The notes beneath the pieces are model-generated. The model ran no database searches, was not told the DNA's origin, and saw only the letters and a list, made by a program, of their open reading frames with translations. Source: Escherichia coli (GTDB taxonomy: Bacteria; Pseudomonadota; Gammaproteobacteria; Enterobacterales; Enterobacteriaceae). From it: 64,000 bases of DNA. Shown in pieces: positions 40,854-44,372 of the stretch (positions are counted from its first letter, which is position 1; each line of letters begins with the position of its first letter). The stretch lies in NCBI RefSeq assembly GCF_003018255.1, contig NZ_CP027440.1; one strand, written 5' to 3'. The position numbers and the translations under genes were made by a program.

Positions 40854-43493
40854 ATGCTGGGTAAATATAAAGCCGTTCTCGCGCTATTATTACTGATTAT
40901 TCTTGTGCCGTTGACACTGCTGATGACGCTCGGGCTGTGGGTTCCCACGCTGGCGGGCATCTGGCTACCGCTCGGGACACGTATTGCATTAGATGAAAGC
41001 CCACGCATTACGCGTAAAGGTTTAATCATTCCCGATCTCCGTTATCTGGTGGGAGATTGTCAGCTTGCGCATATCACCAACGCCAGCCTTTCACATCCCA
41101 GCCGCTGGTTATTGAACGTCGGCACGGTAGAACTTGATTCTGCTTGTCTGGCGAAATTGCCGCAGACGGAGCAATCGCCTGCCGCTCCAAAAACCCTCGC
41201 GCAGTGGCAGGCCATGTTGCCTAACACCTGGATCAATATCGATAAACTGATTTTTTCTCCCTGGCAGGAATGGCAGGGAAAACTCTCTCTCGCATTAACC
41301 TCCGATATCCAGCAACTGCGTTATCAGGGCGAAAAAGTTAAATTTCAAGGCCAGCTGAAAGGGCAACAACTTACAGTCAGCGAACTGGATGTCGTCGCGT
41401 TTGAAAATCAGCCGCCGGTTAAACTGGTGGGGGAATTTACTATGCCGCTAGTGCCGGATGGACTTCCTGTAAGTGGTCATGCTACTGCGACGTTAAACTT
41501 GCCGCAGGAGCCTTCACTGGTGGATGCCGAGCTGGACTGGCAGGAAAATAGCGGGCAATTGATTGTGGTGGCACGGGATAACGGCGATCCGTTGCTCGAT
41601 CTGCCGTGGCAAATTACTCGCCAACAATTGACCGTAAGCGATGGTCGCTGGAGCTGGCCGTATGCAGGTTTTCCTTTGAGTGGACGACTGGGTGTCAAAG
41701 TCGACAACTGGCAGGCAGGGCTCGAGAACGCTCTGGTCAGCGGACGACTGAGTGTGCTGACCCAGGGGCAAGCGGGTAAGGGCAACGCGGTGCTTAATTT
41801 TGGCCCAGGAAAATTAAGTATGGATAACAGCCAGCTGCCTTTGCAGCTGACCGGTGAAGCGAAACAGGCGGACCTCATTTTATATGCCCGTTTACCTGCG
41901 CAGCTAAGCGGAAGTCTGACTGACCCAACGCTGGCCTTTGAGCCAGGCGCGTTATTACGTTCGAAGGGAAGAGTCATCGATTCGCTGGACATCGATGAAA
42001 TCCGCTGGCCTTTAGCGGGTGTAAAAGTCACCCAACGTGGTGTTGACGGACATTTGCAGGCCATTTTGCAGGCGCATGAAAATGAACTGGGCGATTTCGT
42101 GCTGCATATGGATGGACTGGCGAATGATTTTCTCCCTGACGCTGGCCGCTGGCAGTGGCGCTACTGGGGAAAAGGCAGTTTTACACCGATGAATGCCACC
42201 TGGGATGTCGCAGGAAAGGGTGAGTGGCATGACAGCACGATTACGCTGACCGATCTCTCCACCGGTTTCGACCAGTTACAATACGGTACGATGACGGTAG
42301 AAAAGCCGCGATTAATTCTCGACAAGCCCGTCGTCTGGGTACGTGACGCACAGCATCCCTCCTTTAGCGGCGCGCTGTCACTGGACGCCGGGCAAACGCT
42401 GTTCACTGGCGGCAGTGTGTTACCGCCATCAACCTTAAAATTTAGTGTCGATGGGCGCGATCCGACGTATTTCCTCTTTAAAGGCGATTTGCATGCTGGT
42501 GAGATTGGCCCGGTTCGGGTAAATGGTCGCTGGGACGGTATTCGTCTGCGCGGTAACGCCTGGTGGCCTAAACAATCACTGACTGTATTCCAGCCGCTGG
42601 TGCCACCCGACTGGAAGATGAACTTACGCGATGGCGAACTGTATGCTCAGGTTGCATTTTCAGCTGCGCCTGAACAAGGATTCCGCGCGGGAGGGCACGG
42701 TGTGTTGAAAGGCGGTAGTGCCTGGATGCCAGATAATCAGGTTAACGGTGTCGATTTTGTCCTGCCTTTCCGTTTTGCCGATGGAGCCTGGCATCTGGGG
42801 ACTCGCGGCCCCGTTACGTTGCGAATTGCCGAAGTGATTAATCTGGTGACAGCGAAAAATATTACGGCTGATTTGCAAGGGCGTTATCCGTGGAGTGAAG
42901 ACGAACCATTGCTGTTGACTGATGTTAGCGTCGATGTGTTAGGCGGTAACGTGCTGATGAAACAATTACGCATGCCGCAACATGACTCGGCGCTGTTGCG
43001 GCTGAATAATCTCTCATCCAGCGAACTGGTTAGCGCCGTCAATCCGAAACAATTCGCCATGTCCGGGGCATTTAGTGGTGCATTGCCGTTATGGCTAAAC
43101 AACGAAAAATGGATAGTGAAAGACGGCTGGCTGGCAAATAGCGGGCCAATGACCTTGCGGCTGGATAAAGACACCGCAGATGCGGTGGTGAAAGACAATA
43201 TGACCGCGGGTTCAGCAATTAACTGGTTGCGCTATATGGAAATTAGCCGTTCATCGACAAAAATTAATTTAGATAATCTCGGTTTATTAACCATGCAGGC
43301 CAATATTACAGGTACCAGTCGCGTTGATGGTAAAAGCGGTACGGTAAATCTTAATTACCATCATGAAGAGAATATTTTTACGCTGTGGCGCAGTTTACGC
43401 TTTGGCGATAATCTCCAGGCATGGCTGGAGCAGAACGCGCATCTACCGGGAAATGACTGTCCGCAAGGAAAAGAGTGTGAGGATAAACAATGA
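40854..43493 (+). CDS. ydbH: AsmA-like large envelope protein YdbH
   Basis: 879 aa with an N-terminal TM anchor; forms an operon with ynbE and ydbL. Confidence 0.9.
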   Translation: MLGKYKAVLALLLLIILVPLTLLMTLGLWVPTLAGIWLPLGTRIALDESPRITRKGLIIPDLRYLVGDCQLAHITNASLSHPSRWLLNVGTVELDSACLAKLPQTEQSPAAPKTLAQWQAMLPNTWINIDKLIFSPWQEWQGKLSLALTSDIQQLRYQGEKVKFQGQLKGQQLTVSELDVVAFENQPPVKLVGEFTMPLVPDGLPVSGHATATLNLPQEPSLVDAELDWQENSGQLIVVARDNGDPLLDLPWQITRQQLTVSDGRWSWPYAGFPLSGRLGVKVDNWQAGLENALVSGRLSVLTQGQAGKGNAVLNFGPGKLSMDNSQLPLQLTGEAKQADLILYARLPAQLSGSLTDPTLAFEPGALLRSKGRVIDSLDIDEIRWPLAGVKVTQRGVDGHLQAILQAHENELGDFVLHMDGLANDFLPDAGRWQWRYWGKGSFTPMNATWDVAGKGEWHDSTITLTDLSTGFDQLQYGTMTVEKPRLILDKPVVWVRDAQHPSFSGALSLDAGQTLFTGGSVLPPSTLKFSVDGRDPTYFLFKGDLHAGEIGPVRVNGRWDGIRLRGNAWWPKQSLTVFQPLVPPDWKMNLRDGELYAQVAFSAAPEQGFRAGGHGVLKGGSAWMPDNQVNGVDFVLPFRFADGAWHLGTRGPVTLRIAEVINLVTAKNITADLQGRYPWSEDEPLLLTDVSVDVLGGNVLMKQLRMPQHDSALLRLNNLSSSELVSAVNPKQFAMSGAFSGALPLWLNNEKWIVKDGWLANSGPMTLRLDKDTADAVVKDNMTAGSAINWLRYMEISRSSTKINLDNLGLLTMQANITGTSRVDGKSGTVNLNYHHEENIFTLWRSLRFGDNLQAWLEQNAHLPGNDCPQGKECEDKQ

Positions 43494-43675
43494 AAATTTT
43501 ACTGGCTGCGTTGACGTCATCTTTTATGCTGGTTGGCTGTACGCCTCGCATTGAAGTCGCTGCACCTAAGGAACCGATCACTATCAATATGAACGTTAAA
43601 ATTGAGCATGAGATCATCATCAAGGCAGACAAAGATGTCGAAGAGCTGCTTGAGACCCGTAGCGATCTTTTTTGA
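43490..43675 (+). CDS. ynbE: small lipoprotein YnbE
   Basis: 61 aa with lipobox LVGC; start overlaps the ydbH stop. Confidence 0.8.
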   Translation: MKILLAALTSSFMLVGCTPRIEVAAPKEPITINMNVKIEHEIIIKADKDVEELLETRSDLF

Positions 43676-43682
43676 GGTGATG

Positions 43683-44009
43683 ATGAAAAGAACATTACTT
43701 CTTTGTGCATTTCTTGTTGGCTTGGTAAGCAGCAATGTAATGGCATTGACTCTGGATGAAGCCAGAACTCAGGGGCGGGTAGGCGAAACATTTTATGGTT
43801 ATCTGGTTGCGCTGAAAACAGATGCTGAAACTGAGAAATTAGTAACCGACATCAATGCCGAACGTAAAGCGAGCTATCAACAACTGGCAAAGCAGAATAA
43901 TGTGTCGGTGGATGATATCGCGAAACTCGCCGGGCAAAAGCTTGTAGAACGGGCCAAACCCGGGGAATATGTACAAGGGATAAACGGTAAATGGGTGCGA
44001 AAATTTTAA
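43683..44009 (+). CDS. ydbL: periplasmic protein YdbL (DUF1318)
   Basis: Start at MKRTLLLCAFLVG with GAGGTG ribosome-binding site; 108 aa. Confidence 0.8.
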   Translation: MKRTLLLCAFLVGLVSSNVMALTLDEARTQGRVGETFYGYLVALKTDAETEKLVTDINAERKASYQQLAKQNNVSVDDIAKLAGQKLVERAKPGEYVQGINGKWVRKF

Positions 44010-44180
44010 TAGCAAAACCGCAATATCGGGATAACGCTACAGGAGAAGACGATTAATCTATTTTCCGGAAACAACGTGAATATTCAAAAATTCCTGTCAA
44101 ATTGCCTTTCGCCCTGAAAAATGCATAGTCAAATATCTGTTTTAACTAATTCGCGTTGCTGTACATGCAACGCGAATTAG

Positions 44181-44372
44181 TTAGCGGAATTTACGTCGAT
44201 ACTCGCCTGGCGTCATCCCAAAGCGTTGCTTAAATACCGTTGAAAAATGACTCTGGTCGGAAAATCCCCAATGAAAGCCAATGCCTGCCAGTTTTTCATC
44301 ATCTGCGGCATGGCGAATCGCATCTGCACAAAAATCGAGACGACGGTTACGGATATATTGCGCGACTACCAA
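44181..44372 (-). pseudogene. feaR: feaR 3' fragment (AraC-type HTH C-terminus only)
   Basis: 63-aa ORF encoding an AraC-family HTH tail (GFHWGFSDQSHFSTVFKQRFGMTPGEYRRKFR); feaB, tynA and paaZ-paaX are absent from the window. Confidence 0.55.

Follow-up and report, generated by a model that had tools for sequence, protein, structure and literature searches.

Rho-dependent transcripts end at stable stem-loops that have reduced U content and no upstream A-tract; the sequence downstream of these stem-loops shows a mild enrichment of C over G, and the stem-loops protect the RNA against PNPase and RNase II (Dar and Sorek 2018, PMC6061677). A stem-loop is also required for collision-driven bidirectional termination of convergent gene pairs (Wang et al., bioRxiv 10.1101/2022.10.23.513370). 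In the non-coding DNA of Escherichia coli MG1655, perfect inverted repeats with arms of at least 13 nt are about 150-fold enriched, and template switching has been put forward as a process that preferentially corrects imperfect copies (Lavi et al. 2018, PMC5941160); the mechanism of quasipalindrome mutagenesis has been described as well (PMC7202029).

The palindrome considered here, found in a 64-kb stretch of E. coli DNA (the whole of which we call the window), is of kinds already known: stem-loops of Rho-terminated transcripts and long, perfect inverted repeats of non-coding DNA. Its only unusual aspect is the series of alleles at one position of its stem.

The palindrome and its genomic setting

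A perfect inverted repeat of 17+17 nt, TAACTAATTCGCGTTGC-TGTACAT-GCAACGCGAATTAGTTA, occupies positions 44143-44183 of the window, between the converging genes ydbL (+) and feaR (−). An earlier, sequence-only reading of this DNA had reported a perfect palindrome with a 7-bp loop; both the palindrome and its loop are real, but the arms are 17 nt long rather than 16. That reading had also placed the palindrome across the feaR stop codon, as it indeed lies. The features of the region are given below, with gene annotation taken from strain 104, a chicken isolate that is 100% identical over the region.

43683-44009, plus strand: ydbL, last gene of ydbH-ynbE-ydbL; stop codon at 44007-44009
44023-44069, plus strand: what remains (~47 nt, the 3′ end) of an ORF of 101 aa found intact in E. 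fergusonii
44143-44159: left arm of the palindrome, TAACTAATTCGCGTTGC, with a polymorphic stem base at 44152 (C here; G or A in other strains)
44160-44166: loop, TGTACAT, 7 nt
44167-44183: right arm of the palindrome, GCAACGCGAATTAGTTA, in which 44174 pairs with 44152 (G here; elsewhere C, T, or a mismatching G)
44181-44183, minus strand: feaR stop codon, TAA, whose bases make up the three outermost pairs of the stem
44181-44387, minus strand: 3′ remnant of feaR, 207 nt, a pseudogene without its N terminus
44184-44400, plus strand: RNA past the hairpin, antisense to feaR; untranslated and richer in C than in G in the K-12 ortholog
44388-44540: last 153 nt of paaX, fused to the feaR remnant and followed by paaY

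The spacer between the ydbL stop codon and the palindrome is 133 nt, after which the ydbL transcript reaches the hairpin. On the other side, the feaR remnant forms an ORF on the minus strand whose C-terminal end reads ...GEYRRKFR. The feaR-paaX deletion junction lies at 44387/44388, 204 nt from the palindrome; missing from the window strain are the 5′ part of feaR, feaB, tynA, and paaZ through most of paaX. What is left of feaR is promoterless, so that only a plus-strand role of the hairpin could apply in this strain. Other strains carry different deletions of the same region (L017, where the deletion is IS1 mediated; L018; and L007, which is strain 21319).

The spacer itself has a history as coding sequence. 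In E. fergusonii, ydbL and the palindrome are separated by an intact 101-aa ORF (L013, 1881-2186), which had no match in a Pfam search. This ORF is not retained in any complete E. coli genome; since only its 3′ end is left in E. coli, the ydbL-feaR spacer is a decayed gene.

The sequence-only reading had called the palindrome unusually long, and this was borne out: no perfect short-loop inverted repeat in the 64-kb window is longer, and the runner-up has arms of 12 nt. When the window was shuffled 20 times, the longest arms reached 8 to 11 nt at most, which puts arms of 17 nt far beyond chance. As RNA, the palindrome is predicted to fold into a hairpin of −25.5 kcal/mol on the plus strand and −24.9 kcal/mol on the minus strand, with z-scores of −8.0 and −9.6, respectively; as single-stranded DNA, its predicted folding energy is −18.5 kcal/mol. 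It is the sole strong inverted repeat from the ydbL stop codon to the downstream region of Rho termination considered below.

Next in length among the perfect inverted repeats of the window is ACAAAAGGGAAA-GATGCA-TTTCCCTTTTGT at 46211-46240, which lies 8 nt past the pdxI stop codon and just ahead of an IS200C-type tnpA (annotation from the identical strain 104). With its flanking A and T runs, it resembles either a canonical bidirectional terminator or the hairpin of an IS200 end.

Termination signals and published RNA data

The hairpin has a 17-bp stem that includes an 8-bp GC-rich core, and thus the GC-rich stem-loop of an intrinsic terminator; the U-rich tract is lacking. The sequences that follow the stem, GCGGAATTTACG on the plus strand and AAACAGATATTT on the minus strand, contain no U-tract in either direction, and the immediate 3′ tails (GCGGAAUUUACG and AAACAGAUAUUU, respectively) are not U rich. 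On the plus strand, the sole T-run, TGTTTT, comes before the stem, the reverse of a bidirectional terminator's order of A-tract, stem, T-tract; neither transcript would therefore receive a U-tail. A scan of 43400-44700 with a terminator consensus returned 0 sites, and d'Aubenton-Carafa-type scores, which are weighted for the T-tract, ranged from −20 to −57 whether the full stem or the GC-rich inner stem was used. These results agree with the earlier suggestion that a palindrome without a T-run is not a simple intrinsic terminator, and published bicyclomycin data point instead to Rho.

Adams et al. (2021; PMC7815308, Supplementary file 2) reported a region of Rho termination on the plus strand at MG1655 position 1446501, antisense to feaR. 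The K-12 palindrome lies at NC_000913.3 1446340-1446380 (L001, 5341-5381), where it overlaps the stop codon of an intact feaR; the Rho region is thus 121 nt past it. Upstream and downstream reads at 1446501 were 54 and 14 without bicyclomycin and 87 and 91 with it (Rho score, 4.03; p = 1.3e-5); these DirectRNA-seq counts come from 800-nt windows with low read numbers and refer to K-12 and to the plus strand only (PMC7815308). Because bicyclomycin abolishes the drop in coverage, the plus-strand drop is Rho dependent and does not come from the hairpin alone. On the plus strand of K-12, and at this low coverage, the data argue against efficient intrinsic termination at the hairpin, which does not behave as Rho independent.

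Several of the properties listed by Dar and Sorek (PMC6061677) are seen at the locus. The stem-loop is stable and has neither a U-tract nor an upstream A-tract; transcription continues past it into a Rho-terminated region; and the sequence downstream of it resembles rut sites in having more C than G, with a C/G ratio of 1.1 to 2.1 in 78-nt windows on both strands. No 3′ end at 14463xx, where expression is low, is listed for either strand in the curated Term-seq data of Adams et al. (Supplementary file 1; PMC7815308), and the TRS tables examined list none at the palindrome site.

The sequence-only reading had proposed a comparison with the K-12 sequence downstream of feaR, and would have been refuted by the same sequence annotated there as the feaR terminator. 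This check came out half one way and half the other: the palindrome is present in K-12, with a compensatory swap of one base pair (see below), but the RefSeq K-12 record annotates neither a terminator nor any other feature at this site. Our literature search found no paper describing this hairpin, and it is unannotated in the records examined.

Copy number, distribution, and alleles

A search for additional copies, as had been suggested, turned up one locus per genome only. Within the window there are no further copies at up to 3 mismatches, and none would be expected by chance. A 61-mer around the palindrome is present in ~4,190 of 5,426 complete E. coli genomes, at one locus each (a second hit listed per genome is a self-match of the palindrome), and in E. 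coli genomes and E. fergusonii alike the palindrome always sits in the ydbL-feaR interval. Plasmid and phage sequences yielded no true copies; the sole matches were mislabelled chromosome fragments. A metagenome scan in which the variable positions were left open found 90 stretches, 80 of which were fetched, and all 80 had the flanks ATATCTGTTT and GCGGAATTTA. A permissive Rfam search of 43400-44700 gave only sub-threshold matches to eukaryotic miRNA and snoRNA hairpins; lacking a proper match, the palindrome belongs to no known RNA family. A repeat family of the REP/BIME type, also considered, would have many dispersed copies, and the palindrome is found at one place per genome.

The palindrome is restricted to the E. 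coli/E. fergusonii lineage. In E. fergusonii, it is identical and lies at that species' feaR stop codon. Among the five loci returned by a scan for feaR in other species, those of Pseudocitrobacter and Pluralibacter have feaR and ydbL stop codons only 2 to 3 nt apart and no hairpin. E. albertii and E. marmotae lack feaR and have no palindrome after ydbL. It is also absent from 'E. coli' SCPM-O-B-8794 (L008), a divergent Escherichia whose FeaR is 96% identical and whose spacer is 73 nt. Being absent from other genera and from some Escherichia lineages, the palindrome is dispensable.

In SCPM-O-B-8794 (L008, 3404-3482), ~100 nt of spacer is gone, and the remaining 73 nt contain a weak, AT-rich inverted repeat of 9 nt; feaR ends there in TGA instead of TAA, and the missing segment appears to end exactly at the stop codon. 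In strain 21319 (L007, ~1533), a 15-nt deletion takes most of the right arm (ATGCAACGCGAATTA), and this strain has a separate feaR-paaY deletion too.

Five alleles are common in complete genomes. They are listed by the base pair at stem position 10 (44152 and its partner, 44174), the polymorphic pair, and by loop; the counts are exact 61-mer matches, which sum to 4141 of ~4193 genomes.

Window type: C·G pair, loop TGTACAT, 880 genomes
K-12 type: G·C pair, loop AGTACAT, 1398 genomes
ECONIH1 type: A·T pair, loop TGTACAT, 129 genomes
HS type: G·G mismatch, loop AGTACAT, 412 genomes
2015C-3107 type: G·C pair, top pair broken, loop AGTACAC, 1322 genomes

Relative to the window, K-12 thus has a compensatory change from C·G to G·C in the stem. 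In addition, the change from T to A in its loop allows pairing with the last T of the loop, which extends the hairpin to 18+18 bp with a 5-nt loop, GTACA, and a predicted −27.6 kcal/mol, making it more stable than the probably ancestral window allele. All five common alleles are predicted to fold, at −20 to −27.6 kcal/mol, and the G·G mismatch costs about 4 of 27 kcal/mol. Of the 80 metagenome loci fetched, 39 have G·C, 25 C·G, 14 G·G, and 2 A·T; no other combination occurs among them. Stem position 10 is thus found as three Watson-Crick pairs plus the expected intermediate, and 15 of the 18 pairs never vary.

Across 84 loci, common variable sites number 2 in the 34 nt of the arms, 21 in the 133 nt of the adjacent spacer, and 14 in 204 nt of the feaR remnant; this low variability of the arms suggests constraint or homogenization. 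A formal covariation test on the five distinct alleles was not significant, as 46 of 500 shuffles reached the observed score. Variants in which a base has become the complement of its partner, so that an imperfect repeat is turned into a perfect one, are present, as at quasipalindrome hotspots; this is an observational match, which selection or recombination could also produce.

The window allele (C·G with the T-type loop) is probably ancestral, because E. fergusonii has C·G with a T-type loop. The ECONIH1-type allele has a feaR remnant of the same length, 207 nt, as the C·G allele of the window, which suggests a single old deletion common to roughly 1,000 complete genomes. Since A·T shares this remnant with C·G, its apparent ancestor, the A·T double change most likely arose after the death of feaR. 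At 44174 there is homoplasy: two or more flank haplotypes carry G·G, and G·C is found on the HS-type flank as well. The choice between G and C at 44174 is homoplasic even relative to SNPs only 50 nt away (L053, L072, L098, and L027), which indicates recurrent interconversion or very short recombination tracts.

Possible roles and relation to known systems

We tentatively favor the view that the palindrome provides a protective or pause hairpin at the 3′ end of Rho-terminated transcripts and is not a self-sufficient intrinsic terminator. It would act as RNA, as a stable stem-loop without a U-tract in the 3′ region common to ydbH-ynbE-ydbL and feaR. RNA polymerase coming from ydbL would pass through the hairpin into untranslated RNA antisense to feaR; Rho would load on this RNA, with termination about 100 to 300 nt further on, and 3′-5′ exonucleases would then digest the transcript up to the base of the hairpin, leaving a stable mRNA 3′ end of the Dar and Sorek class. 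Where feaR is intact, its mRNA would be capped, right at the stop codon, by the hairpin formed from the opposite strand, and the same hairpin may double as a pause or collision point for converging polymerases. We infer this protective role from the predicted stability on both strands and in all five alleles, the lack of a U-tract, the Rho region 121 nt downstream in K-12, the C-over-G sequence past the stem, the lack of any other strong inverted repeat up to the Rho region, the small number of arm variants, and the three-state pair. Counting against it are the 800-nt windows and low read numbers of the bicyclomycin measurement; the restriction to a plus-strand role in the window strain; the lack of a 3′ end in the Term-seq data of Adams et al. 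or in the TRS tables, where expression is low; covariation that comes from a single pair and is not significant; the abundance of imperfect alleles (412 genomes with G·G and 1322 with a broken top pair); and the absence of the palindrome from feaR-bearing loci of SCPM-O-B-8794, Pseudocitrobacter, and Pluralibacter. Besides selection, intramolecular template switching at quasipalindromes has probably aided the repeated return to perfect complementarity.

A possible, if somewhat unlikely, alternative is that the palindrome has no function, having been inherited from the ancestor of E. coli and E. fergusonii, perhaps as an old 3′ structure of the decayed 101-aa ORF, and kept perfect by template switching during replication. 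Its surroundings are a decayed gene, its loss in SCPM-O-B-8794 had no obvious consequence, and the A·T double change most likely postdates inactivation of feaR. Moreover, because the G·G mismatch is cheap, selection for re-pairing should be weak, and yet there are three perfect states and, in K-12, an 18th pair. The homoplasy of 44174 across flank haplotypes and the allele pattern as a whole fit the model of Lavi et al. (2018; PMC5941160), although short recombination tracts could explain the homoplasy instead. If G·G were corrected by template switching, another expected product would be C·G with the A-type loop, an allele that is absent from the 80 metagenome loci and present in at most ~52 of 4193 complete genomes. 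Its site also counts against a functionless palindrome, since functional hairpins are to be expected just there, exactly between convergent units and in a region of Rho termination. The allele series fits template-switch "self-correction" as well as it fits selection; the stronger claim, that the locus is a natural, population-scale record of such self-correction in which template switching, and not selection for an RNA function, keeps the 41-bp palindrome perfect, seems to us clearly improbable. If it were true, the locus would be a handy natural marker for the rates and strand bias of quasipalindrome mutation. We do infer a contribution of template switching alongside a role in RNA.

That the palindrome is a weak, non-canonical bidirectional terminator, or a hairpin that positions head-on collisions between polymerases transcribing ydbL and feaR, we consider decidedly unlikely. 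Its location between convergent genes, the presence of the same hairpin in both transcripts, and the stem-loop requirement found by Wang et al. (bioRxiv 10.1101/2022.10.23.513370) speak for such a role. In one variant, partial intrinsic termination would use the GC-rich inner stem, CGCGUUGC/GCAACGCG, followed by AAUUAGUUA; this inner stem, with a tail that has 4 U in 9 nt, gives the least negative score, about −20. Every terminator score is nonetheless negative and the scan empty, the plus-strand T-run is upstream instead of downstream of the stem, and plus-strand coverage shows no drop at all under bicyclomycin (87 to 91). Collisions would also be rare, given the weak expression of feaR in the absence of inducer and its lack of a promoter in the window strain. 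A site that acts as DNA, whether an operator for a dimeric regulator (PaaX, for example, or another local factor) or a cruciform or recombination hotspot behind the feaR-paa deletion, is very improbable indeed. Its dyad symmetry is perfect, the half-site TAATTC resembles the PaaX half-site TGATTC, the 15-nt deletion of strain 21319 falls inside the right arm, and the missing segment of SCPM-O-B-8794 ends exactly at the feaR stop codon. Nevertheless, the palindrome is located at gene 3′ ends with no promoter-like site nearby, and one base per half-site varies among three nucleotides. The protein-binding site suggested in the sequence-only reading is not supported by a comparison with its sole plausible local candidate: the PaaX operator at a regulated promoter is TGATTC-N27-GAATCA, compared with TAATTC-N21-GAATTA in the window and TAATTG-N21-CAATTA in K-12, the strain that does have PaaX but whose half-sites match even less well. 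The same reading's recombination hotspot near the deletion boundary likewise lacks support, in view of the distance of 204 nt to the junction and of the independent deletions of other strains, which end at an IS1 insertion or elsewhere, further upstream. Arms of 17 bp are also far below the palindrome length needed for cleavage by SbcCD.

As a 3′-end hairpin, the palindrome would be the likely 3′ boundary of both feaR and the ydbH-ynbE-ydbL operon, which serves phospholipid transport. The locus shows that a hairpin rejected by terminator finders for want of a U-tail can nevertheless sit in a Rho-terminated zone, and it offers a clean natural example of a palindrome with a single polymorphic pair that has been re-complemented several times. 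No new system is indicated, and the locus should not surprise specialists in bacterial transcription termination.

Among known systems, REP/BIME and the other intergenic palindrome families of E. coli share with this locus an extragenic palindrome at convergent gene 3′ ends, whereas here the palindrome is strictly single copy, locus specific, and without an Rfam family. Bidirectional intrinsic terminators, as described with SEnd-seq and in the polymerase collision model of Wang et al. (bioRxiv 10.1101/2022.10.23.513370), likewise place between convergent genes a stem-loop that can be read on both strands, but they have the order A-tract, stem, T-tract, and at this locus the plus-strand T-run comes ahead of the stem. 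The perfect inverted repeats thought to be maintained by template switching (Lavi et al. 2018, PMC5941160) are similarly long and non-coding, and the mismatch intermediate, three perfect states, and homoplasy seen here are in keeping with them; the difference is that only one of the two possible products of G·G correction is seen, and for this locus the mechanism is suggested by comparison of alleles. Finally, the protective stem-loops at the 3′ ends of Rho-terminated transcripts (Dar and Sorek 2018, PMC6061677) resemble the palindrome in being stable, in having neither U-tract nor A-tract, and in being followed by sequence with more C than G in a Rho-dependent region; compared with them, the stem described here, with a putative 3′ end at its base, stands out for its length and perfect pairing (17 to 18 bp), is common to two converging units, and overlaps a stop codon.
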